Shown one piece after another: positions 1 to 24,386 of a DNA stretch of 64,000 nt. Made by a program: the position numbers and the translations under genes. The stretch's first letter is position 1. The number at the start of each line of letters is the position of its first letter. This DNA is from a virus, in IMG/VR virus record IMGVR_UViG_2864926767_000001, one strand, 5' to 3'. The notes under the pieces were generated by a model. That model was not told the DNA's origin. It saw only the letters and a list, made by a program, of their open reading frames with translations, and made no database searches.

Positions 1-134
1 TGACTGACGGAAAAAGCGTTGGTCTGCTCAGCGCCCTGACTAAGGCAGGTCTTGCCTTCGAGGGCCGTCAGCACAACTCCCTCAACGATGCGAAGAACCT
101 GGCCCGCCTGATCACCAAGGAAAACCTCCTCTAG
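1..134 (+). CDS. 3' end of a DEDDh 3'-5' exonuclease (ERI1/KapD-like), partial
   Basis: Frame from nt 3 reads TDGKSVGLLSALTKAGLAFEGRQHNSLNDAKNLARL..*, resembling the ExoIII H-x4-D motif; N-terminus lies outside the window. Confidence 0.55.
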   Translation, partial: TDGKSVGLLSALTKAGLAFEGRQHNSLNDAKNLARLITKENLL

Positions 135-146
135 CGATCTAGCGGC

Positions 147-184
147 CAAAGAAAAAGCCGCCGGGCATTGCGCCAGGCGGCTTT
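147..184 (-). terminator. Intrinsic terminator ending the tRNA operon (possibly bidirectional)
   Basis: Minus strand AAAGCCGCC-13nt-GGCGGCTTTTTCTTT, just downstream of the last tRNA. Confidence 0.8.
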
Positions 185-209
185 CGAGATCCGCACGATG
201 CGGTCAAAT

Positions 210-285
210 TGGAGCGGATAAGGAGGTTCGAACTCCTGGCCTGCGCCTTGGCAAGACGCCGCTCTACCAGCTGAGCTATATCCGC
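210..285 (-). tRNA. tRNA-Gly(GCC)
   Basis: Cloverleaf with encoded CCA; anticodon loop TTGCCAA. Confidence 0.95.
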
Positions 286-286
286 G

Positions 287-394
287 TGGTGGACGTTGCA
301 GGAGTCCAACCTGCTACCCCTCCTTGCGCAATGGCTGAGCCTAGCGTGGTAGCGAACTACCAGGCCCGCAAGGAAGAGCTGCCTCAGCACGCCC
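287..394 (-). ncRNA. 108-nt tRNA-like RNA with G3-U70 acceptor stem, T-arm and CCA but no anticodon arm
   Basis: GGGCGT/ACGTCC-A-CCA acceptor; T-arm GCAGG-TTGGACT-CCTGC; 12-bp helix CTCTTCCTTGCG/CGCAAGGAGGGG; internal UUCG hairpin. Confidence 0.7.
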
Positions 395-415
395 CTTGAA
401 ACTACACAGACAACT

Positions 416-491
416 TGGTGGAGAATGCGGGGTTCGAACCCGCGACCTCCTGCATGCCATGCAGGCGCTCTCCCAACTGAGCTAAGACCCC
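416..491 (-). tRNA. tRNA-Ala(GGC)
   Basis: Cloverleaf with CCA; loop ATGGCAT; G3-U70; U5.U68 and C6.U67 mismatches. Confidence 0.92.
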
Positions 492-499
492 GATGAAAC

Positions 500-575
500 T
501 GGTGGAGCAGGTGGGGCTCGAACCCACGACCTCAGGCATGCCATGCCTGCGCTCTTCTAACTGAGCTACAACCCC
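500..575 (-). tRNA. tRNA-Ala(GGC)
   Basis: Cloverleaf with CCA; loop ATGGCAT; G3-U70. Confidence 0.92.
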
Positions 576-590
576 GGTACTTCATTGAAC

Positions 591-666
591 TGGTGGAGAA
601 TGCGGGGCTCGAACCCGCGACCTCCTGCTTGCAAGGCAGGCGCTCTTCCAACTGAGCTAAGACCCC
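591..666 (-). tRNA. tRNA-Ala(TGC)
   Basis: Cloverleaf with CCA; loop CTTGCAA; G3-U70; same mismatched acceptor stem as 416..491. Confidence 0.93.
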
Positions 667-671
667 AAAAC

Positions 672-746
672 TGGTGCATGCGGAAAGATTCGAACTTTCG
701 GCCCCTCGATTATCGGTCGAGTGCTCTACCGCTGAGCTACGCGTGC
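672..746 (-). tRNA. tRNA-Ile(GAT)
   Basis: Cloverleaf with CCA; loop CCGATAA (C at position 33). Confidence 0.88.
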
Positions 747-790
747 ACAACCCTTTTCTACTCCGGCGGAAATCCAACGCCGGGTGAACC

Positions 791-866
791 TGGTGCCGAA
801 TGAGGGACTCGAACCCATCGCCCTCGCCCTTACCAAGGGCGCGCTCTACCACTGAGCTAAAACGGC
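791..866 (-). tRNA. tRNA-Thr(GGT)
   Basis: Cloverleaf with CCA; loop TTGGTAA. Confidence 0.92.
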
Positions 867-876
867 AGTGAAACAT

Positions 877-1134
877 TGGTGGAGATGACGGGAGTTGAAC
901 CCGCGCAACTGCTACTCAAGACCTTTCAATCCCGAGCTCCAAGGAGCTTTAGACTACGCTTCCCGTGCTTGTTTGGCCCCGCCAGGGTGGAGTGATTACC
1001 AGAACCCTTGAGGGGGCTCCCCTGGCCGCTATCGGTGCTTCTGAGACGTTCCGCTCCTCAAGATGAACAGTCGGGTTTTACCCCTCCGGCTTCTAGTTTA
1101 TGCCGTGCTCGCGACCAACTGAGCATCCATCCCC
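877..1134 (-). ncRNA. 258-nt tmRNA-like / tRNA-like RNA (G3-U70 acceptor, tmRNA-type T-arm, internal pseudoknot)
   Basis: GGGGATG/CATCTCC-A-CCA acceptor; 3' end GCGGGTTCAACTCCCGTCATCTCCACCA resembles ssrA 3' ends; interleaved CTTGAGG/CCTCAAG and GCCAGGG/CCCTGGC pairings. Confidence 0.7.
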
Positions 1135-1139
1135 GTATG

Positions 1140-1215
1140 TGGTGGTAACGAAGGGCTTCGAACCCCTGACCTACCCCGTATGAAGGGGCCGCTCTACCAG
1201 CTGAGCTACGTTACC
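1140..1215 (-). tRNA. tRNA-Met(CAT), elongator-like (Ile2 not excluded)
   Basis: Cloverleaf with CCA; loop TTCATAC; paired G1-C72. Confidence 0.88.
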
Positions 1216-1216
1216 T

Positions 1217-1286
1217 TGGCAGACCGCCCCGGATTCGAACCGAGCCTCTTCAGTTTTGGAGACCTAGAGGGTGCCAGACACGACCT
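1217..1286 (-). tRNA. tRNA-Trp(CCA), 70 nt, lacking a normal D-arm
   Basis: Acceptor AGGTCGT/GCGGTCT-G-CCA; loop CTCCAAA; T-loop TTCGAAT; only 9 nt in place of the D-arm. Confidence 0.72.
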
Positions 1287-1314
1287 GTTAAAACCTTCAA
1301 TTTCCGCTTAAAAG

Positions 1315-1391
1315 TGGGTTGAGAGATGGGGATCGAACCCACGACAACCGGAGCCACAATCCGGTGCTCTGCCAACTGAGCTACTCTCAAC
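1315..1391 (-). tRNA. tRNA-His(GTG)
   Basis: Cloverleaf with G-1, C73 and CCA; loop TTGTGGC. Confidence 0.95.
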
Positions 1392-1400
1392 ATCGAAACT

Positions 1401-1476
1401 TGGTAGATCCGGGCGGGCTCGAACCGCCGACCCTCTGCTTGTAAGGCAGATGCTCTTCCCACTGAGCTACAGATCT
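1401..1476 (-). tRNA. tRNA-Val(TAC)
   Basis: Cloverleaf with CCA; loop CTTACAA. Confidence 0.95.
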
Positions 1477-1490
1477 ACAAACCTTGAAAA

Positions 1491-1565
1491 TGGCGGCCCT
1501 TGGTGGGATCGAACCACCTCGTGGCGGGGTCAAATCCCGCTGCCTTCCCACTTGGCTAAAGGGCT
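1491..1565 (-). tRNA. tRNA-Gln(TTG)
   Basis: Cloverleaf with CCA; loop TTTTGAC-type with TTG anticodon; A1.C72 mismatch. Confidence 0.92.
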
Positions 1566-1608
1566 ACAACTCTTCTGCCTGCCTCTCTTCCGCAGGACTT
1601 CTTCTGTT

Positions 1609-1684
1609 TGGCGGCCCCGGTAGGACTCGAACCTACGCATGCCTGGATCAGAACCAGGTGCCTTACCAGCTTGGCTACAGGGCT
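1609..1684 (-). tRNA. tRNA-Gln(CTG)
   Basis: Cloverleaf with CCA; loop TTCTGAT. Confidence 0.93.
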
Positions 1685-1690
1685 ACTGTG

Positions 1691-1775
1691 TGGTGATGGA
1701 GGTAGGATTCGAACCTACGAACCTTCCGGAGCGGGGTTACAGTCCGCCGGCTTTGACCACTTGCACTACTCCATC
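1691..1775 (-). tRNA. tRNA-Tyr(GTA)
   Basis: Cloverleaf with long variable arm and CCA; loop CTGTAAC. Confidence 0.93.
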
Positions 1776-1861
1776 ATGACTTTCTCGCCAGGGCCGATTC
1801 AGGCCACCTCCTGGCTCACTGATTTTTTTCTGCCGGCGGAGGCTTCGCCTCTCGCCAAATT

Positions 1862-1937
1862 TGGCTCCGATTCCTGGACTCGAACCAGGGACTCCCTAGT
1901 TAACAGCTAGGTACTCTACCAACTGAGCTAAACCGGA
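1862..1937 (-). tRNA. tRNA-Asn(GTT)
   Basis: Cloverleaf with CCA; loop CTGTTAA. Confidence 0.95.
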
Positions 1938-1981
1938 ATTGACCTTCTCAAATCCCTGCAAAATCCTGCAGGCCTTGCATT

Positions 1982-2057
1982 TGGTGGGCCGCATTGGACT
2001 TGAACCAATGACCACCCGCTTAAGAGGCGGGTACTCTACCAACTGAGTTAGCAGCCC
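1982..2057 (-). tRNA. tRNA-Lys(CTT)
   Basis: Cloverleaf with CCA; loop CTCTTAA. Confidence 0.95.
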
Positions 2058-2160
2058 AAAATCATCCCCAGTGTATCGCCGTGGGGTGCGCCGCATACGA
2101 AGCGGGTCGGGTCTCAGCTCCCTGCAGGTTGCCCGTGGGCAATCCTGGTCTGCTGGTCTC
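2058..2160 (-). repeat. Structured ~100-nt element, copy 1 (immediately upstream of tRNA-Lys(CTT))
   Basis: Aligns with 2567..2664, with compensatory base changes in two stems. Confidence 0.75.
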
Positions 2161-2162
2161 TT

Positions 2163-2240
2163 TGGCGGGCCGGGGGAGGACTCGAACCCCCTACCTCAAG
2201 GATTTGGAATCCCGTATGCAGCCAGTTACACCTCCGACCC
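2163..2240 (-). tRNA. tRNA-Trp(CCA)
   Basis: Cloverleaf with G73 and CCA; loop TTCCAAA; one extra C between T-stem and acceptor stem. Confidence 0.85.
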
Positions 2241-2335
2241 GTGTTACTCAGCGAGCGGCCAGGAATTTTTACCCTACCAGTCTGCTGTCTTGCCCATCGA
2301 GTTGGCGTATTCCACCATCTCAATTACCCCTAAAT

Positions 2336-2411
2336 TGGCTCCGGGAACAGGGCTCGAACCTGTGACCCGCGCATTAACAGTGCGCTGCTCTTCCGACTGA
2401 GCTATCCCGGA
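2336..2411 (-). tRNA. tRNA-Asn(GTT)
   Basis: Cloverleaf with CCA; loop CTGTTAA. Confidence 0.95.
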
Positions 2412-2490
2412 AAGGTACATCTACATCTCTGCGTAAGCGGCCCCTTCACGCGCCCTTCCGCTGGCTCCCCGTAACGGGAGCCCCCTGATT

Positions 2491-2566
2491 TGGTGGGCCG
2501 CATTGGATTCGAACCAATGACCAGATGGTTAAAAGCCACCTGCTCTGCCAGCTGAGCTAGCGACCC
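2491..2566 (-). tRNA. tRNA-Lys(TTT)
   Basis: Cloverleaf with CCA; loop CTTTTAA. Confidence 0.95.
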
Positions 2567-2664
2567 AAAATCGTCCCCAGTGTGTCGCCGTGGGGTGCGC
2601 AGCATACGGAGCTGGCCGGGTCTCGGCTCTTTGCAGGTTGGCCAGAAGGCGCCTGGGCTGCCGG
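2567..2664 (-). repeat. Structured ~100-nt element, copy 2 (immediately upstream of tRNA-Lys(TTT))
   Basis: Aligns with 2058..2160. Confidence 0.75.
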
Positions 2665-2716
2665 TTATCTATCTTGCCCTCCGCCCGCTTGGGCCACTGG
2701 GAGGACATTGCATTTT

Positions 2717-2792
2717 TGGTGGAAAAGGACAGGTTTGAACTGCCGACCTCACCCTTATCAGGGGTGCGCTCTACCAACTGAGCTACTCTTCC
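2717..2792 (-). tRNA. tRNA-Ile(GAT)
   Basis: Cloverleaf with CCA; loop CTGATAA. Confidence 0.95.
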
Positions 2793-2797
2793 AAAGT

Positions 2798-2872
2798 TGG
2801 AGCTGAAGACAAGATTCGAACTTGCATAAAGGTGGGTTGCAATCACCTGCCTATCCGTTCAGCCACTTCAGC
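2798..2872 (-). tRNA. tRNA-Cys(GCA)
   Basis: Cloverleaf with U73 and CCA; loop TTGCAAC. Confidence 0.92.
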
Positions 2873-2969
2873 ATCAAACTTTTCTCAAATTTTTGGCGCA
2901 CTTATCCCGCAACTTGAATAACAGTTTTAAAACAACTTTTAAGACAACATCTTAAACTTCAAAAACAAC

Positions 2970-3047
2970 TGGTGCATCAGGGCAGATTTGAACTGCCGAC
3001 CCTCGGGGTTTCACGCCGATGCTCTAACCAAACTGAGCTACCGATGC
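2970..3047 (-). tRNA. tRNA-Phe(GAA)
   Basis: Cloverleaf with CCA; loop GTGAAAC; C31.C39 mismatch. Confidence 0.88.
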
Positions 3048-3085
3048 ATTTAAAACATGAACTTAGAACTGCTAAGTTTCACTAT

Positions 3086-3162
3086 TGGTTGCGGGAGACG
3101 GATTCGAACCGCCGACCGCCGGATTATGAGTCCGACCATCTACCAACTGATTGTATCCCGCC
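3086..3162 (-). tRNA. tRNA-Met(CAT), initiator-like
   Basis: Cloverleaf with CCA; loop CTCATAA; unpaired G1.A72; only two G-C pairs near the anticodon loop. Confidence 0.85.
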
Positions 3163-3169
3163 TAAAACC

Positions 3170-3256
3170 TGGTGGAGCCGGTAGGACTTGAACCTACAGT
3201 GGGCGTCGCCCGGCGGATTTACAGTCCGCTGACTTTACCAATTCGTCTACGTCTCC
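3170..3256 (-). tRNA. tRNA-Tyr(GTA), first gene of the operon
   Basis: Cloverleaf with long variable arm and CCA; loop CTGTAAA. Confidence 0.93.
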
Positions 3257-3311
3257 AGGGTGCTTGGAACCTGCCTTGGGACGTTTGGCCACGTAGAACT
3301 TTATTCTGCGC

Positions 3312-3348
3312 AAACAAAAACCCCGAGGCTTTGGAGGCCTCGGGGTTT
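3312..3348 (-). terminator. Attenuator terminator upstream of the tRNA array
   Basis: Minus strand AAACCCCGAGGC-CTCCAAA-GCCTCGGGGTTT-TTGTTT, about 55 nt before the first tRNA. Confidence 0.85.
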
Positions 3349-3408
3349 ATTTGCCCTTTTAGCCGGCCTCCGCTTCTCAGCGCAGACCGACGAAAATTCG
3401 GTCTACGC
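3333..3408 (-). promoter_or_regulatory. Alternative attenuator hairpins (1:2, 2:3 and antiterminator 3:4)
   Basis: 1:2 GCGTAGACCGA/TCGGTCTGCGC (3380..3408); 2:3 CGGTCT-G-CGCT-GAGA-AGCG-G-AGGCCG (3364..3389); 3:4 GGAGGCC (3371-3365) with GGCCTCC (3339-3333). Confidence 0.8.
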
Positions 3409-3498
3409 AGGAGTCTTCACGCAATAATTGATAAACCACTGGGCCGCGATTTGCTTCGCGCCTTGCTGGTTCATGTGATTGTGGGTCATTGCGTTCAT
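3403..3498 (-). CDS. Leader peptide, 31 aa, MNAMTHNHMNQQGAKQIAAQWFINYCVKTPA (below the ORF-track cutoff)
   Basis: SD AGGAG 6 nt before ATG; stop TAG lies inside hairpin 1:2; composition mirrors the tRNA array. Confidence 0.85.
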   Translation of the reverse strand: MNAMTHNHMNQQGAKQIAAQWFINYCVKTPA

Positions 3499-3522
3499 GG
3501 ATAACTCCTGGGATGTGAGATC

Positions 3523-3570
3523 ATTAAAACAACGCTCTTATTCTTCGTCAACTACTTTTTTGAAATTTTT
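3523..3570 (-). promoter_or_regulatory. Strong sigma70 promoter of the tRNA operon
   Basis: TTGACG (3551-3546), 17 bp, TG-extended TTTAAT (3528-3523); A/T tract upstream resembles an UP element. Confidence 0.8.
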
Positions 3571-3671
3571 TTCAGAAGCTGTTTGCTGCCCCTTCGGCTC
3601 CGTCCTTATCATGGAGATAACAAGCATTACCCACCCTTTGGGTGACTACGCTGCCAACTAGGAGAACAACA

Positions 3672-4610
3672 ATGGTCAGCAGAATTGGACAGGCTCTGAA
3701 GAACTGCCTGACGAACGAAGTAGCTCACGCGAAGGCGATCACTGAGCATGACGCGTCGACCGGTAACAACTTCGCCTACAGGCTCCTCCCCGCCTCCGTT
3801 GTTGGCGCAAGCCTGATGAAGCTGTACCTCTCTGCTTCGCAACCTGGCAACAGCGTTACCGAAAACGTCCTGGCCGCTGGCCAGATGGTCGTCGACGCTA
3901 CCGCCGGCTTCGCAAACGACCACTCGACCGGCCTGATGGTTGGCGGTGCAGTCGTTGCTACTGCCTTCGCCGCCACTTTCGTGAAAGGCCTGGCGCTGGA
4001 AAACGAAGAGCTCCGCAAGCGCCTGAGAGATGCCTTCCAGAAGGAGGGCTATGGCGAAGAGGCCGTTCGATCCGCAGAGCGCGCTCACGCAGCTTTGCTG
4101 AAAACTCACAGCGACCTGAACTCCCTGGTGCACGCTGAGACACAATCGCTGAAGGCGCTGCTGCTCAAGCCGAGCAAGGAGCTGGTGAAAATCGCCAAGA
4201 AGCACAAGGTCGACATCGTTGACCCGGAAGCTCAGCGTGACCTGCAGATGGCTTACATCCACGGCCTACGTCAGGCCCTGGCAGAAGGTGTCGCGAAAGG
4301 TCGTGACATGTCCGGGAGCGTGAAGATCCACTCCAGGGACGTGAAGGCGGCCATCCTCGCCGGCATGACCACCTACTACCAGGCAATCGTGGGCAGCGAG
4401 CCGTCTCTCGGAGCTAAGGTGAAGTACACCATCACCGGGCGTGAAGGAGACCTCATCCAGGACTCCGTTGCCGGCCAGAAGGCCCAGAAAGGCTATGACG
4501 CCATCCGCGCCATGGATGCCGATGCACCGAAGGGTGAGTACTCCAAGAAGGAGATCCTCGAAGCCCTTCAGAAGCGTGAAAGGGATTCCTCGGTCGATCT
4601 CGGTCGCTAA
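3672..4610 (+). CDS. Hypothetical protein (2 possible TM segments; C-terminal PKGEYS motif)
   Basis: AGGAG SD before ATG 3672; coding-like codon bias. Confidence 0.75.
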   Translation: MVSRIGQALKNCLTNEVAHAKAITEHDASTGNNFAYRLLPASVVGASLMKLYLSASQPGNSVTENVLAAGQMVVDATAGFANDHSTGLMVGGAVVATAFAATFVKGLALENEELRKRLRDAFQKEGYGEEAVRSAERAHAALLKTHSDLNSLVHAETQSLKALLLKPSKELVKIAKKHKVDIVDPEAQRDLQMAYIHGLRQALAEGVAKGRDMSGSVKIHSRDVKAAILAGMTTYYQAIVGSEPSLGAKVKYTITGREGDLIQDSVAGQKAQKGYDAIRAMDADAPKGEYSKKEILEALQKRERDSSVDLGR

Positions 4611-4625
4611 GGACTCCCCCTTGGC

Positions 4626-4910
4626 TCAGATTCCATCAATCTCGGCCAGGTATTTCTCGATGGTGCTGACCACCTCCAGGGTGGTCAGTTCATCGAAGGG
4701 GCCCGCAGCTTCGATATACCGACGGAGATCCTCCTGGTAGCTCATTCCCATATTGGAGAGGATCAGCAAGCCCTCCCTGTCTTCCTGAGATAGCTCTCCT
4801 TTCCCTAGCTCCCCAAGCTTCAACCCAGCCGCCTCCAGGCGCGGGTAGAAGGACACAAACTTGTCCTTGGCCTTCTTGGTGAGGTCGTAGGCCTTGGCCG
4901 AATCGGTCAT
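4626..4910 (-). CDS. Hypothetical protein
   Basis: ORF track; ATG 4910 chosen; fills the gap between neighbours. Confidence 0.6.
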   Translation of the reverse strand: MTDSAKAYDLTKKAKDKFVSFYPRLEAAGLKLGELGKGELSQEDREGLLILSNMGMSYQEDLRRYIEAAGPFDELTTLEVVSTIEKYLAEIDGI

Positions 4911-5116
4911 CTCTGCAATTCCATGTAAAAAGAAACGTTTAGTCCCGTGGATCGAGCCCATGAGCCATCAGGCTCAGTCAGGCCGTGGCCTGCCGGCGTA
5001 TCGATCCTGGCGGGGAGGTTCCGACAATATTCCGGATAAAGACGGGCGGCAGTCAACCGACATTTACATGCTCGGGGATGCTGGAATAATGAGGCCTCGC
5101 TCTCGGAAAGGCTCTC

Positions 5117-5674
5117 ATGAAACGTCTACTCGCATGCCTGATGCTCTGCGTAGCTACGCTTGCATCACCCCTTCTGCAGGCTGGCCAGGCGCCCGTCGAC
5201 TGGCGGATCGCTCTGCTCAGCCAGGATCGATGCCTTAACCTCTATCGTCAGTCCACCAAGGAGCGGGTCAACGCCTGCTACTGGTACAAGCGGACGGGCC
5301 TTGATGCTGTCGGCTACGCCAAGGCGAACTACATCCTCAGAGACGCAGAAGAGCGCGTTCAGACGCGCATGGACGTGAAGCTGCTGGACGTGCTCTTCCT
5401 GATCCAGCAATGGCTCATCGCCGAAGGGCGCAACAGCGACATTCACGTGCTCTCCGGCTTCCGTACCCCGGCGCACAACAAGCGCCTGGAAGCCTCCGCA
5501 AAGGACTCACAACATCTCCATGGCAAAGCCGCCGACATCTTCATCCCAGGCCTCAAGACAAACCTGCTCGCAGCCATGAGCCGTGTGATCGGCGTGGGCG
5601 GTGTCGGCATCTACCCGGTGAAGAATTTCGTGCACGTAGATACGGGCAACGTAAGGGTGTGGGTCTACCGATGA
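5117..5674 (+). CDS. YcbK/DUF882 (peptidase M15A, MepK-like) secreted peptidoglycan endopeptidase
   Basis: Signal peptide; SGFRT..N, SQHLHGKAADI, GVGIY..NFVHVDTG motifs. Confidence 0.9.
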   Translation: MKRLLACLMLCVATLASPLLQAGQAPVDWRIALLSQDRCLNLYRQSTKERVNACYWYKRTGLDAVGYAKANYILRDAEERVQTRMDVKLLDVLFLIQQWLIAEGRNSDIHVLSGFRTPAHNKRLEASAKDSQHLHGKAADIFIPGLKTNLLAAMSRVIGVGGVGIYPVKNFVHVDTGNVRVWVYR

Positions 5675-6222
5675 AATTCCTGGTCTTCGTTCTGTTTGCG
5701 CTTATAGTTGCCGGCTGCTCTTCCAGCCCACCTAAGGCCCCTCTTCCACCACAAACTTCAATCAACTTCGGAACTTCTTTTTCGAACTTCGACAGCCTAC
5801 CCGTAACGCTAAGCGCAGCAGTTTCTAAAGACCCTGTCGCATCGAGTCGGAAATATTCAGAGCAAGACCGAATGCGGGCAGTGAAACGCATCCTCGATGC
5901 GAACTTCACCTACAAGCATGACTTCGCCCAATATGGTCGCGGCGTAGCCTGGCACGCACCCTCCCAGGTAAGGGTCGTCAAAGGGAGGTTCGTCGGTGAT
6001 GTGAAGGACTACTGCGTCCTTGCGAGGGCCATGCTAGAGCAGGCTGGGCTCCCGGCCAGGATCGCCATCACCGGCAGAATCTACGACCGTCAGTTCCACT
6101 TCATTGCCCTTTCAAACAATTATGCAATCGACAAACTTCAATTAGATATTCGCGCAACTTCCTACTATGAAATCCAGGCCGTATCGCGGAACGACATAAA
6201 CAAGCCCTGGGAACTCAAGTAA
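5671..6222 (+). CDS. Lipoprotein, transglutaminase-like cysteine-peptidase fold, nucleophile motif altered
   Basis: Lipobox IVAGC; ATGA coupling to ycbK-like gene; GDVKDYC where GDCEDYA is expected; later H and D present. Confidence 0.6.
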   Translation: MKFLVFVLFALIVAGCSSSPPKAPLPPQTSINFGTSFSNFDSLPVTLSAAVSKDPVASSRKYSEQDRMRAVKRILDANFTYKHDFAQYGRGVAWHAPSQVRVVKGRFVGDVKDYCVLARAMLEQAGLPARIAITGRIYDRQFHFIALSNNYAIDKLQLDIRATSYYEIQAVSRNDINKPWELK

Positions 6223-6822: not shown

Positions 6823-7389
6823 ATGACGATCAAGTCGGACAAATGGATTCGGGAAATGGCGCAAAAGCACGGCATGATCGAGCCGTTCGTAGAGCGCCAG
6901 ATTCGCGGAGCTGAGGATCAGCGCGTGATCTCCTACGGCGTGTCGAGCTACGGATACGATGTTCGCTGCGCCGCCGAATTCAAGGTGTTCACCAACATCC
7001 ACTCCGCCGTGGTCGATCCGAAGAACTTCGACGAGAAGAGCTTCGTCGACATCAACAGCGACGTCTGCATCATTCCGCCGAACTCGTTTGCCCTGGCCCG
7101 CACCGTCGAGTACTTCCGCATCCCGCGTGACGTGCTGACCATCTGCCTGGGCAAGAGCACCTACGCGCGCTGCGGCATCATCGTCAACGTGACCCCGCTG
7201 GAACCGGAGTGGGAAGGCCACGTGACCCTGGAATTCTCCAACACCACCAACCTGCCGGCGAAGATCTACGCGCACGAAGGCGTGGCGCAGATGCTGTTCC
7301 TGCAGTCCGACGAGGCATGCGAGGTGTCTTACCGTGATCGCGGCGGCAAGTACCAGGGCCAGACCGGGGTCACGCTCCCGAAGGCATAA
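6823..7389 (+). CDS. dcd: dCTP deaminase
   Basis: [48 protein letters not shown], typical gammaproteobacterial Dcd. Confidence 0.97.
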
Positions 7390-7608: not shown

Positions 7609-7845
7609 TCAGGTCTGCTGCAGAGTGTCGGGATAGCCCGTCGTGATCCCCTTGCCTGTCGCTTTGATCTTGATGATGCGGTGTGGTGGGTAATGCGTCA
7701 TCTCCCCTTCCTTTGTATGCCTGTAGCCGGTCTGGATGATCGCAGAGCAGTGCTCGCGGGCGGACTCCGGCGATGCCACTTCGTACTTGTAGATGTTGCC
7801 GCAGTCGATGTAGACCTGGATTGTGATCTTTTCGGACTCGCTCAT
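7609..7845 (-). CDS. Small hypothetical protein
   Basis: GGGAG SD before ATG 7845. Confidence 0.7.
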   Translation of the reverse strand: MSESEKITIQVYIDCGNIYKYEVASPESAREHCSAIIQTGYRHTKEGEMTHYPPHRIIKIKATGKGITTGYPDTLQQT

Positions 7846-17822: not shown

Positions 17823-19290
17823 TCATGCGCGGGTCAAGGTTTCAGGCGCACAGCGCCTTCACTCTTGACGTTCTGCCAATAGCTGTACGAATATACAGCC
17901 ATGCTGAACGGGATCCGCTGTCGCGCTCATCCAACCACCGAGCAGGCCAAGAAACTGGCCCAGTGGATCGGTTGTGCGCGACTGATCTACAACGCAAAGG
18001 TATCGGAAATGCAGTATTTCCGCACCTTCTCGCGTAAGGCGTTGGGCGCCGGCCAAGCCGTGATCGATCAAGCGTATTCGCAGTTCAAGGACGCTGAACT
18101 CACCCCGTTCCTGAGCGAGGTTCCGTCGCAAATTCTGCGTAATTCAGCCGTGCAGTTCATGAACGGCTGGCAGCGATTCCTCAAGGGCCTGGCCTCTCCG
18201 CCAACCCACAAACGCAAGGGTGAGCGAGACAGCGTTCATCTCACCAACGAACTGTTCCGGTTCGTTGACGAAGGCCTGATAGAGATCGGCACGAAACGCT
18301 TCCCGGTTGGCACCCTGCGGTTCACGCAACACAGGGAAATCACCGAACCGAAGTCCATCATCGTCAGCCGCAAAGCCGGCAGATGGTACGTCAGCTTCAA
18401 TTTCGAAGACGCAACACTGGCTCCGCCGCGCCCTCGAGACGAGATTCTGGCCGATCTGTCCCATCTCGATGAGGCTCAGCTAACGGCAATGACCTGGGCC
18501 GGCGACCGTGGAGTGCGGGACATGCTGCACGGCAGCGATGGCCAGGTGTTCCACCTGACCGTCAGCGCTGTGGCCAAGAATCGACGCAGGGAACTCACCA
18601 AGAGGCGCCTTCAGCGGCGCCTCGCCCGGCAGCAGAAGGGTTCCAGGCGCCGCGACAAGACCAAGCGTCGCATCGCGCATATCAGCAGTGGCCAGGCTGA
18701 GGTACGGCGTGATTTCGCGCACCAGACCTCACGGAAGCTGGTCGACAGCCCGTACCAGGTATTCGTGTTCGAAGACCTGAAGATCACCAACATGACCCGC
18801 CGGCCGAAGCCAAAACAGGACGAAGCGACCGGCGAATACCTGCCCAATGGCGCTGCAGCGAAAGCCGGCCTGAACCGAAGCATTCTGCAGAGCTGCTGGG
18901 GCAACATCGTACTTTACACTCACTACAAGGCCGAACGAGCGAACAAGGTCACCATCAAGGTGCACCCGCATTTCAGCTCGCAGACGTGCTCCCAATGCGG
19001 ACACACGTCATCCGAAAACCGCTCTGGAAAGCAGTTTTCGTGTACCTCTTGTGGCTTCAAGGCAGACGCAGATGCCAACGCCAGTGCCGTGCTTCGCGCC
19101 AGAGGCGCGAAGCACATCATCGACGGAGAATGGCGTGAGCAGAAGGCCAAGAAGACAGTGAGTTTCAGGAAAAGGGGCTCGGAACGCGTCCCTCAAAACC
19201 ACGTGGAGAGACCTGTCGCACTGTGCGCTCAGATCTCAGTGAAGCGCGGATGCCCCGCTTGAAATCTTCGATTCAAGCGCGGGTAGTTCA
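17823..19290 (+). mobile_element. IS200/IS605-family element carrying only tnpB (IS1341-like)
   Basis: TTGAT at 17818-17822 followed by left-end hairpin GTCAAG..AGGCGC-ACA-GCGCCT..CTTGAC; right-end hairpin CCGCTTGAA/TTCAAGCG-CGG then TAGTTCA ending at 19290; no tnpA. Confidence 0.8.
17901..19262 (+). CDS. tnpB: TnpB/InsQ-family RNA-guided endonuclease
   Basis: N-terminal PTTEQ..GCARLIYN; RuvC D (AGDRG), E (FEDLK), D (DADANA); Zn finger SQTCSQCG..CTSCG. Confidence 0.93.
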   Translation: MLNGIRCRAHPTTEQAKKLAQWIGCARLIYNAKVSEMQYFRTFSRKALGAGQAVIDQAYSQFKDAELTPFLSEVPSQILRNSAVQFMNGWQRFLKGLASPPTHKRKGERDSVHLTNELFRFVDEGLIEIGTKRFPVGTLRFTQHREITEPKSIIVSRKAGRWYVSFNFEDATLAPPRPRDEILADLSHLDEAQLTAMTWAGDRGVRDMLHGSDGQVFHLTVSAVAKNRRRELTKRRLQRRLARQQKGSRRRDKTKRRIAHISSGQAEVRRDFAHQTSRKLVDSPYQVFVFEDLKITNMTRRPKPKQDEATGEYLPNGAAAKAGLNRSILQSCWGNIVLYTHYKAERANKVTIKVHPHFSSQTCSQCGHTSSENRSGKQFSCTSCGFKADADANASAVLRARGAKHIIDGEWREQKAKKTVSFRKRGSERVPQNHVERPVALCAQISVKRGCPA

Positions 19291-22308: not shown

Positions 22309-22436
22309 GTAACTCCCACATTTGATTCATCGTACAACATGAGAGTCGCAGCTTACATCTAGCCAGCGCGCAATTTCCTATATATTGACACACTTGAGTG
22401 CCATGCAATAATCCATCGGACTTGCCGAGGATTGTC

Positions 22437-24386
22437 ATGCGCACATATACCAAATGGGCACTCGTGGTAGTTGCCGTCCTGATTGCCGCGCTCGCCGGGG
22501 CCTATCTCTACGTCAACAACGAAACCCCCGAAGCCACTAACCCCGGCTACGACATCAAGAAGCCAGAAGAAGTCTTTCTACTGAAATCTGGACAGGCTGC
22601 CAATATTGAAGCAATTGTCGTTGCTGGCAGCATTTACGATGGCGCGAAAGACATCGTTATCAAGTTCAAAGACACCAAGAATGCTGCGATCTACCAGCGA
22701 GTTGTCTACGATGGGTGGATTCGTTTTGAACAGAAGTTCCTTACTGGTGCGCTGAAAGAAAACCCCAGCATCGATTTCCGCATGATGGAATCGATGAGTG
22801 GCATCGGTAAGATTGTTGGCCAGGCCAATGACCCGACCGCCCTGATCACAGTTGGCAAGGCCAAAGGCGGTCTTGCAGACCTAATCAAAATCCTACTGCC
22901 GATGCTTGTCCTGGTAGGAGCACTGATCTACACGCTGCGCCTGCAGATGGGGATGGTGAGCAACTCCTTCGAGATTGCTCGCCCATCAGACATCAAGGAC
23001 ACCCTCGACGACATCGTCGGCATGCAGGACGTCAAGAAAGACCTGATGCAGCTGGCCGAGATGTTCACCAAGCCGCATGAGTACCGGGCGTTTGGTGCTG
23101 ACAAGCCGTTCAACGTCATGATGACCGGCGAGCCTGGCACCGGTAAGACGATGATGGCTCGCTGCCTGGCCAAGATGCTCAACGTGCCGATGATCTATGT
23201 CTCGGCCTCGAACCTGGAGTCCGGCTTTGTAGGTGGCGGTTCAGGCACCCTGCGCAAGATGTTCAAAGCCGCCATGAAGCTCAAACGCTGCATTGTCTTC
23301 ATCGATGAGGGCGACTCCTTGTTGGCAGCCCGCGCAGCGCATGGCTCCAACCGCTACGAGAACGACACCATGACTGCGCTGCTGGCCATCCTCAGTGGTG
23401 TCCAGGCACAGCAAGCAAAGGGCGTTATCTGGATCATCGCCAGTAACTTCGACGAAGGCACCATGAACATGGACGCGGCAATGCTGCGCCGCTGGCCCAT
23501 GAAGATCGGGTTCCGCCTACCCTCTTACCATGAGCGCCGGGAGCTGCTCACCCGCCTCCTGGAGCCATTCCGAAGCAAACTGGGCGCAGACATTAATCTT
23601 GACCACCTGGCGACCATCACCGGGGGCATGAGTCCGGCTAAGCTCGGGGATATGACCACCAGGGCGTCTCTGATCGCCATCCAGGAAGAATCGAAGATTA
23701 CCCAGGACATCCTTGTCCGGGCCTACGAACGCCTCATGATGGGTAACACAGACCGTTCGCCAAAGGGTACTGCTGACTCAAAACGCCGGATCATTGCCAT
23801 CCACGAGACTGGCCACTTCATCATGGAACTCCATCACGCCATGATCGCGGCCAACAACGATCTGAGCCTGCTGCCGGAGAAGTTGCGGGTACTTAAAATC
23901 TCCACTGAGGCCGTACCGAAGATCGGCGCCGAAGGCTACGTCCTTAGCCGCAACGAGGAATCCCCTCTGCGTACCCGCGATCAGCTCGAGGAGCACGTAG
24001 CGGAGCTTTACGGCGGCATGGCCAACGAAGAACTGCACTTCCACGGAGGCGGGGTCACCACTGGCGCGCACCAGGACATTCGACAGGCAACCCTGATCCT
24101 CAACACCATGTACAGCGAGATGGGCTTCTACAGCCACTCCAAGGTCAACCTGCGCCTACTGGCCGGCGAACGTGGCGCGGTGGATGATACGACCCGGATG
24201 AACATCACCAACAAATCCGAGGAGATCTACCGGCAGACCCTGTCCACCTTGCGCAGCTACCAGGCACTCTCCGACATCCTGGTGGAGCACCTGATGATCA
24301 ACCATGTGATGACGGTCAGGGAGGCAATCCCAATCGTAAGCGAGTACTATAAGGGGAAGAACTCGCCGCTTCGCCGGTACAGTTAA
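22437..24386 (+). CDS. ftsH: FtsH-like membrane AAA+ zinc protease (peptidase M41)
   Basis: Two TM segments; Walker A GEPGTGKT; Walker B FIDE; HETGH; GGMANEE; GAHQD. Confidence 0.88.
   Translation: MRTYTKWALVVVAVLIAALAGAYLYVNNETPEATNPGYDIKKPEEVFLLKSGQAANIEAIVVAGSIYDGAKDIVIKFKDTKNAAIYQRVVYDGWIRFEQKFLTGALKENPSIDFRMMESMSGIGKIVGQANDPTALITVGKAKGGLADLIKILLPMLVLVGALIYTLRLQMGMVSNSFEIARPSDIKDTLDDIVGMQDVKKDLMQLAEMFTKPHEYRAFGADKPFNVMMTGEPGTGKTMMARCLAKMLNVPMIYVSASNLESGFVGGGSGTLRKMFKAAMKLKRCIVFIDEGDSLLAARAAHGSNRYENDTMTALLAILSGVQAQQAKGVIWIIASNFDEGTMNMDAAMLRRWPMKIGFRLPSYHERRELLTRLLEPFRSKLGADINLDHLATITGGMSPAKLGDMTTRASLIAIQEESKITQDILVRAYERLMMGNTDRSPKGTADSKRRIIAIHETGHFIMELHHAMIAANNDLSLLPEKLRVLKISTEAVPKIGAEGYVLSRNEESPLRTRDQLEEHVAELYGGMANEELHFHGGGVTTGAHQDIRQATLILNTMYSEMGFYSHSKVNLRLLAGERGAVDDTTRMNITNKSEEIYRQTLSTLRSYQALSDILVEHLMINHVMTVREAIPIVSEYYKGKNSPLRRYS

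Follow-up and report, generated by a model that had tools for sequence, protein, structure and literature searches.

The window analyzed here (the whole stretch of 64,000 nucleotides filed as IMG/VR virus record IMGVR_UViG_2864926767_000001) carries on its minus strand, at 3551-3311, a compact switch region that, as far as sequence and modeled folding can tell, is probably a ribosome-mediated (leader-peptide) transcription attenuator regulating transfer RNA (tRNA) genes; we put the probability of this reading at about 0.78. By the sequence-level criteria of classical attenuators the unit would belong with them, but the genes behind it are tRNA genes, which would make it an attenuator of a new kind in its target. 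The observations that carry this reading concern sequence elements, the match between codons and anticodons, conservation, covariation, and RNA contigs that bridge leader and tRNAs. They bear on why mobile elements keep spare tRNAs by the dozen and on the occasions for their use.

An earlier reading of this DNA (the sequence-only reading) had listed a promoter, an AGGAG Shine–Dalgarno (SD) sequence, and a 31-codon open reading frame (ORF) with its peptide, and all of these can indeed be read directly in the sequence (Table 1, where leader coordinates are given on the minus strand). Between the leader ORF and the tRNA genes lies the terminator, a GC-rich stem of 9–12 bp with a T-tract within 3348-3311, the pairs of which are preserved in every one of the relatives described below. 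Behind it come 21 canonical tRNA genes in 3,047 bp, in the order Tyr, a CAT tRNA (initiator-like), Phe, Cys, Ile, Lys, Asn, Lys, Asn, Tyr, Gln, Gln, Val, His, Met, Thr(GGT), Ile, three Ala, and Gly(GCC). The operon had been said to hold 23 tRNAs; 21 stand as canonical genes by both ARAGORN and Rfam, and the other two are noncanonical Trp(CCA)-like genes, detected solely at relaxed ARAGORN thresholds. The array falls within what is called an L-array (at least 20 tRNA genes at no fewer than 2 per kb) by the definition quoted in PMC4758250.

What does the leader ORF encode? Its peptide uses all of the 14 amino acids that had been claimed for it (Gly, Ala, Ile, Thr, Met, Trp, His, Val, Gln, Tyr, Asn, Lys, Cys, and Phe), it contains no Leu, Arg, Ser, Asp, or Glu, and its sole Pro stands at codon 30. 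The claimed near-complete match of its codons to the array also stands: under ordinary wobble, the array anticodons read 29 of the 30 codons after the start (the exception being Pro30, CCT). Against a background readability of 0.53, taken from long ORFs of the same replicon, the binomial P is 1.7e-7, so the earlier rough estimate of 1e-6 was a fair one. Among 5,005 small ORFs on the replicon's contigs (ATG-started, 15–45 codons), the leader ranks first; the runner-up has a P of 1.4e-3.

The sequence-only reading went on to predict a complementary leader, rich in Leu, Arg, Ser, Pro, Asp, and Glu, before another array of the replicon, and leaders of this sort are present before two more of its arrays. 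On contig C18, a second array (four Ser tRNAs, a CAT tRNA, Arg(CCT), Thr(TGT), Thr(CGT), three Leu tRNAs, and Pro) is preceded by a promoter, a 17-codon ORF of Ser, Leu, Arg, Thr, and Pro codons plus one ATA codon, and a terminator; we call this type II, the unit in the window being type I. On contig C43, a third array (type III: Asp, Glu, Asp, Arg(GCG), and Arg(TCG)) has two tandem ORF-plus-terminator units ahead of it, the cores of which are runs of Asp, Glu, and Arg. No promoter-like motif was read between these tandem units in the source genome or in the related plasmid pPL1, and they would amount, in effect, to a double gate. The smaller groups of tRNA genes that this replicon also carries (Arg-Gly-Gly, a single Cys, and a single Asn) have a promoter directly ahead and no leader.

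The same three types recur elsewhere. Six relatives—pPL1, the P. serbica IT-P366 plasmid, pPLMAXa, pBASL58, pMPPla107, and the FeN3W plasmid—were found through the similarity of neighboring proteins and through the terminator/antiterminator pattern of the type II switch, which matched 34 stretches, 31 of them unrelated terminators with no tRNAs behind. (The leader itself, used as a query against plasmids in megablast and blastn, returned generic tRNA matches or nothing, and it was not found in the genomes of 60 related species.) All six carry three array types, each with its own leader; ORF composition follows array content, which is the covariation that the sequence-only reading had proposed to look for. 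The ORF, the SD, the stop codon within a hairpin (hairpin A, below), and the composition class are conserved in all seven plasmids despite sequence divergence. When the codons of 25 leaders from these seven plasmids (this one and six relatives) are pooled, array I can read 91% of those in type I leaders, as against 7% and 3% for the two remaining arrays; for type II, the figures are 81% as against 13% and 3%; and for type III, 48% as against 34% and 17%. Counted back from the stop, the Asp, Glu, and Arg codons of type III gather between -6 and -17, and in the stretch from -6 to -9 the array can read 43 of 44 codons. Nonarray codons cluster near the end of the ORF, in the last three codons of type I, the last two of type II, and the last five of type III; this concentration of exceptions in the final two to five codons, where segment 1 of the switch (below) would already lie under the ribosome, fits the idea that Pro30 escapes the rule as part of a structural zone.

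Should one read all of this as nothing more than a leaky insulator or a processing terminator, with a small ORF that is never translated and a composition that is a by-product of local constraints? Translation of the leader is, after all, predicted from sequence, and in GC-rich DNA small ORFs rich in Ser, Leu, Pro, and Arg are frequent by chance, the type II leader not being top-ranked for its own array. Such a nonregulatory account must nevertheless explain why this ORF stands out 10,000-fold from the rest of the 5,005 small ORFs; the retention of ORF, SD, stop-in-hairpin, and composition class in seven diverged plasmids; two mutually exclusive folds that both covary (see below); and small tRNA sets that do without any such leader. 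We consider this account very unlikely.

Synonymous codon choice tracks the anticodons of the array, not the amino acids. All 11 Ile codons of the type I leaders are ATC or ATT (array anticodon GAT), and all five of those in type II are ATA (CAT). Thr is written ACC or ACT in five of five cases in type I (GGT) and ACA or ACG in 9 of 11 in type II (TGT and CGT). Arg is AGR in three of four cases in type II (CCT and TCT) and CGN in 54 of 54 in type III (ACG, GCG, and TCG). Internal Met codons occur in the type I leaders of exactly those four of the seven plasmids that have a CAT tRNA in array I. The ATA codons of the type II leaders suggest, in turn, that the CAT tRNA of array II is a tRNA-Ile2, its own sequence being indecisive.

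This partition bears on a second alternative, namely, that the leaders sense amino-acid supply (charging) as classical leaders do, rather than tRNA abundance, so that starvation raises tRNA transcription. The textbook leaders (trpL, hisL, and ilv) work by charging, and to the mechanism a missing tRNA and an uncharged one are indistinguishable. Amino-acid starvation is not relieved by extra tRNA, though, and there are no amino-acid biosynthesis genes downstream; dividing Ile, Thr, and Arg codons among leaders by anticodon would be needless for an amino-acid sensor. We consider a charging sensor very unlikely, and partition at the level of the anticodon argues against a purely generic stress sensor as well.

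A leader-peptide attenuator also has to switch. The sequence-only reading had named four pairings (1:2, 11 bp long and spanning the stop; 2:3, capped by GAGA; 3:4, GGAGGCC with GGCCTCC; and the terminator), and folding reproduces them all. Segments 1 and 2 form hairpin A. Hairpin B pairs 3391-3379 with 3374-3362 across the GAGA tetraloop at 3378-3375, and the antiterminator pairs GGAGGCC (3371-3365) with GGCCTCC (3339-3333), together with GGG (3356-3354) with CCC (3345-3343). Minimum-free-energy folds of the full-length RNA always contain the terminator, as they would for any attenuator, and only folds truncated before the terminator 3′ arm are informative; folding was done on RNA ending just before that arm, with the stop region either free or masked by a ribosome. 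When the stop region is free, hairpin A and the antiterminator form, with a pairing probability of 0.69 for the terminator 5′ arm. When 7–10 nt past the stop are masked by a ribosome standing there, hairpin B forms, and that probability falls to 0.34. Each of the seven type I leaders (five clearly different sequences among them) shows the same alternation in its minimum-energy folds, with A plus the antiterminator when free and B plus the terminator when masked. The proposed ON/OFF logic can be reproduced, in silico, by folding with the ribosome at the stop or upstream of it. In a scan of the ribosome along the ORF, the model RNA stays antiterminated until the A site reaches about the last four codons, a limit that matches the zone of relaxed codon choice. 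Naked RNA, again ending before the 3′ arm, is antiterminated in six of the seven leaders, from which we predict read-through for a leader that is not translated, unlike those of trp or his.

Compensatory changes support both of the alternative folds. For hairpin A plus the antiterminator, 9 of 19 pairs have changed on both sides (five in helix A and four in the antiterminator helix), a number that none of 500 shuffles reaches, and 91% of cells are paired as against 30–44% with slid partners. For hairpin B plus the terminator, 4 of 21 pairs have changed on both sides (a number reached by 3 of 500 shuffles), with 98% of cells paired as against 20–60% with slid partners; helix B itself contributes two such pairs, with 97% of its cells paired.

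How might the switch work? The direction of switching, its timing, and the physiological signal that slows decoding are what we infer, and we would put the steps as follows. Transcription would start near 3516, and a ribosome would translate the 31-codon leader while RNA polymerase makes the five pairing segments. A ribosome that arrives at the stop in time would cover segment 1, leaving segment 2 to pair with segment 3 (hairpin B); segment 4 would then be free to form the terminator with segment 5, and the array would be OFF. A ribosome that is delayed anywhere ahead of about the last three codons, or one that never loaded, would allow hairpin A to form over the stop, in which case segment 3 would pair with the terminator 5′ arm and loop (the antiterminator), RNA polymerase would read through, and the array would be ON. 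Because nearly all of the sensed codons are read by the array's own tRNAs, the products of the array would speed the leader and so shut the array, which is to say negative feedback. The tRNAs of the replicon would then be divided into three self-tuning units: type I, in the window; type II, for Ser, Leu, Pro, Thr-ACR, Arg-AGR, and Ile-ATA; and type III, for Asp, Glu, and Arg-CGN. The signal that slows decoding could be tRNA abundance, codon usage that does not fit that of a newly entered host, damage to tRNAs, their lack of charging, or translation stress in general; a link to anti-tRNA defenses is speculation.

The last of these signals can be made into an account of its own, in which the attenuator is real and serves as a general sensor of translation stress. 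Any slowing of ribosomes (by antibiotics, cold, or ribosome damage) would induce the spare tRNAs, and codon composition would be secondary or would merely keep the leader insensitive to tRNAs that the array cannot supply. The five-segment design, in which a delay anywhere in the ORF leads to read-through, suits this account, as do the many nonarray codons of the type III leaders and the induction of a cyanobacterial trn array by translation inhibitors (PMC8421152; PMC10272220). A generic sensor would not, however, need three leaders with nearly disjoint codon sets on one replicon, nor would it need a synonymous choice that tracks array anticodons or type I leaders that sample almost every tRNA species of their own array. 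We think it unlikely that general stress sensing is the better description.

Several points weigh against the codon-specific attenuator that we prefer. At -11, the -10 hexamer has T where A is usual, and a generic promoter scan did not call the leader promoter for this reason; the promoter call therefore rests on conservation. The -35/17/-10 arrangement is kept in the six related plasmids, though the spacer sequence diverges. The equilibrium switch of this leader is modest (0.69 vs. 0.34), and the fold check with masked nucleotides after the stop, which gives hairpin B at 7–10 nt, gives the antiterminator back when the ribosome mask is widened to +13. The switch amplitude of individual leaders beats only 89–97% of dinucleotide shuffles (P ~0.03–0.11). 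In the type II leaders, all four helices are present, yet an equilibrium switch appears in only two of seven plasmids, the C18 leader having no clear switch; for most of them, it is the order of synthesis, not equilibrium, that would have to decide. Half of each type III leader consists of nonarray codons. A few codons have no matching tRNA, namely, two internal Ser codons in pMPPla107, one Gly in pBASL58, and one Thr in pPL1, and a Trp codon stands before two arrays in which no tRNA-Trp was detected. Kinship among the seven plasmids also means that tallies made over them do not represent independent events. Finally, the RNA contigs described next are uninformative on transcript ends, and one of them (X1) extends upstream of the predicted promoter.

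Is the array transcribed through the leader at all? The first tRNA gene begins 55 nt beyond the T-run of the leader terminator, and the gaps of the array hold other small RNAs besides the two Trp-like genes. There is one copy of the family-type promoter motif, upstream of the array, with no second one inside it; no minus-strand terminator was found within the array; and a closing terminator stands at 184-150. On this evidence, the array looks like a single transcription unit to which the leader is the entrance. Up to that closing terminator, the genes 3′ of the leader are tRNA and small-RNA genes only, with no amino-acid biosynthesis, transport, or synthetase genes, and no Leu, Arg, Ser, Asp, or Glu tRNA is cotranscribed with them; the presence of such tRNAs in the transcript was what the sequence-only reading had singled out as one thing that could undo it. 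A variant of the locus, 97–98% identical, is present in three soil metatranscriptomes of one study, the contigs of which span the leader, the terminator, and then tRNA-Tyr, the CAT tRNA, tRNA-Phe, and tRNA-Cys, with upper ends at 3492, 3507, and 3606. The flanking 9 kb is mostly uncovered by these contigs, which points to RNA, not contaminating DNA, as their source and is in keeping with cotranscription. The soil variant differs from our leader at six places (one synonymous Lys codon, AAG to AAA; two loop positions of hairpin A; the unpaired positions 3350 and 3353 in the linker before the terminator; and one in the spacer between SD and ATG), and none of the six is in a paired segment.

Classical attenuators—trpL, hisL, pheL, thrL, and the multivalent ilvGMEDA and ilvBN leaders of enterobacteria—share with this unit a promoter-proximal short ORF with regulatory codons, hairpins of antiterminator and terminator between which the ribosome chooses, an intrinsic terminator ahead of the structural genes, and, as the signal, the decoding speed of particular codons. 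To our knowledge, all described leader-peptide attenuators control amino-acid biosynthesis, transport, or synthetase genes. Here, the targets are tRNA genes rather than biosynthetic enzymes; 14 amino acids and ~17 anticodons would be sensed instead of one to three amino acids; nearly the whole ORF would be regulatory instead of a short run of codons; and the product (tRNA) would act back directly on the sensor. In trp and his, moreover, an untranslated leader terminates, whereas here, with five segments, the prediction for an untranslated leader or a lagging ribosome is ON. The pheM leader of pheST and similar attenuators of synthetase genes resemble this unit in placing a component of the translation apparatus under leader-peptide control, but pheM senses one amino acid, its product is a protein, and it controls no tRNA genes. 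T-box riboswitches are likewise transcription attenuators that read the state of a specific tRNA; they differ in that they bind uncharged tRNA directly, need no translation, and target synthetase or amino-acid genes. No T-box covariance match from Rfam was found in window 1-6000 at E up to 1, and the only match of a known RNA family to the leader was to anti-hemB, below threshold (22.6 bits vs. a gathering score of 49.5). As far as we know, tRNA genes are usually thought to be controlled at the promoter only (by growth rate and the stringent response). A full-text literature search, with subscription journals outside its coverage, found no description of leader-peptide attenuation of tRNA genes.

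In function, the nearest system that has been described is the trn operon of Anabaena sp. PCC 7120, the type case of an L-array; translational stress induces this operon, and TrcR represses it (PMC8421152, PMC10272220). Like it, the array in the window is a supernumerary, horizontally spread tRNA array on a megaplasmid, and it would likewise be silent unless translation is impaired; unlike it, with its ribbon-helix-helix repressor protein, the array here would be controlled in cis by RNA and ribosome, in three codon-specific units. The Anabaena papers mention neither a leader ORF nor an attenuator (PMC8421152, PMC10272220).

If all of this is right, attenuation has acquired a new class of regulatory target, and a cis-acting sensor of decoding speed, one for each codon set, feeds back on tRNA genes; there would then be a mechanism for the "silent unless translation falters" behavior of tRNA arrays. 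An element so equipped could match tRNA supply to any new host and restore depleted or cleaved tRNAs without a protein regulator. That is, we would go somewhat further and propose, with a little more confidence than doubt, that large mobile replicons (the ~1-Mb megaplasmids of the pMPPla107 family) carry a modular, self-tuning controller of tRNA supply, in which the code is split into codon sets, each with an array and a leader that samples it, transcribed only when decoding is slow. Such a controller might account for the way in which a megaplasmid of 57% GC keeps down its translational cost in hosts of 60–67% GC. Because pMPPla107 and pBASL58 are cultured, transferable conjugative systems, the idea can be tested at the bench, and the leaders would be natural, compact reporters of individual tRNA availability that could be reused as tools.

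Where does the window come from? The source genome has 83 contigs, 7.58 Mb, and 129 tRNA calls. The contig of the window and ~12 others have 57–58% GC, as against 65–67% elsewhere in the genome, and sum to ~1 Mb; the array-bearing contigs stand at 57.5%, and the host stands at 65–67%. The closest relatives of a neighbor protein in the window (28% identity) and of an FtsH-like protein (41–45%) are encoded by ~1-Mb Pseudomonas megaplasmids, namely, pPL1, pMPPla107, pBASL58, and the FeN3W plasmid, and the three-array layout is common to this replicon and the pMPPla107-family plasmids. On these three grounds (GC, the FtsH-like protein, and array layout), the window probably lies on a ~1-Mb megaplasmid-like replicon that is a candidate member of the pMPPla107 family. 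The array was not found in the 60 related species' genomes that were searched, and it is both supernumerary and on a horizontally mobile element, as indicated by the GC contrast, the 129 tRNA calls, this negative result, and the megaplasmid kin. The paper that defines the pMPPla107 family gives tRNA gene counts and mentions neither leaders nor attenuation (PMC6482414). A further match to the pattern of the type II switch lies on a contig of Pseudomonas sp. TH31, 950 kb long (locus L029, at 7671-7711, the array lying beyond the end of the locus), which is probably an eighth member of the family.

Table 1. Features of the type I unit, its array, and other parts of the replicon (window coordinates unless a contig is named; dG, folding free energy)
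Feature	Position	Strand	Basis or remark
A/T-rich tract upstream of -35, putative UP element	3553..3575	-	Read from sequence; similar tracts before -35 in all related type I leaders
Promoter: -35 TTGACG (3551-3546), 17-nt spacer, -10 TTTAAT (3528-3523)	3523..3551	-	Sequence and conservation
Shine–Dalgarno AGGAG, 6 nt 5′ of ATG	3505..3509	-	Sequence; GGAG/GAGA-type motifs equally spaced in relatives
Leader ORF, 31 codons + TAG (ATG 3498, TAG 3405-3403)	3403..3498	-	Proposed sensor
Segment 1: hairpin A 5′ arm, with last sense codon and stop	3398..3408	-	11 bp with 3390-3380
Segment 2: hairpin A 3′ arm or hairpin B 5′ arm (anti-antiterminator)	3379..3391	-	Folding
Segment 3: hairpin B 3′ arm or antiterminator 5′ strand (GGAGGCC 3371-3365)	3362..3374	-	Folding
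Segment 4: G-patch 3356-3354, terminator 5′ arm 3345-3337, loop 3336-3330	3330..3356	-	Folding
Segment 5: terminator 3′ arm 3329-3321 and T-tract 3320-3311	3311..3329	-	Stem with 3345-3337, dG -20.8
Regulated tRNA array	210..3256	-	ARAGORN and Rfam agree
Initiator-like CAT tRNA, second gene of array	3086-3162	-	Acceptor stem nearly identical to host initiator tRNA
tRNA-Trp(CCA)-like gene 1	2163-2240	-	Normal acceptor stem, G73, CCA; odd D region; Rfam tRNA-Sec 28 bits
tRNA-Trp(CCA)-like gene 2	1217-1296	-	D-armless in appearance
Intrinsic terminator ending array	150..184	-	dG -21.3, then TTTTTCTTT
IS605 OrfB/TnpB-like protein	17901-19262	+	Pfam matches Cas12f1-like_TNB, OrfB_IS605, HTH_OrfB_IS605
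FtsH-like protein, AAA and M41 peptidase domains	22398-24386	+	41–45% identity across four ~1-Mb Pseudomonas megaplasmids; handy family marker
Tandem leader-plus-terminator pair before Asp/Glu/Arg array	G000 C43:25955-26300	-	Also pPL1 L006, P. serbica L057, pMPPla107 L017

A few smaller observations concern the RNAs of the array and its surroundings. The CAT tRNA at 3086-3162 has a 1:72 mismatch of G1/A72, where the host initiator has C1/A72. At 867-1139 (minus strand), the array contains an RNA of ~270 nt that begins GGGGATG, ends CATCTCCACCA, and has an acceptor stem with G3:U70; Rfam gives a weak, partial match to transfer-messenger RNA (tmRNA) at 877-933, and the RNA may be a tmRNA-like or alanine-identity RNA that is cotranscribed with the tRNAs. 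The megaplasmid-like replicon also has a tmRNA gene of its own (G000 C32:81675-82034, plus strand; tag ANDEVYSVAA), the host tmRNA being on C16 with the tag ANDDNYALAA. A repeat of ~100 nt, ending ...CACCCCACGGCGA.ACACTGGGGA.GATTTT, occurs on the minus strand at 2058-2160 and 2567-2716, just 5′ of tRNA-Lys(CTT) and tRNA-Lys(TTT). Outside the array, the ORFs overlapping 6868-7385 have no Pfam match; many short contigs of the three soil metatranscriptomes align to this stretch at 90–97% identity and a depth of 50–250, which suggests a highly expressed conserved gene or RNA of related elements.

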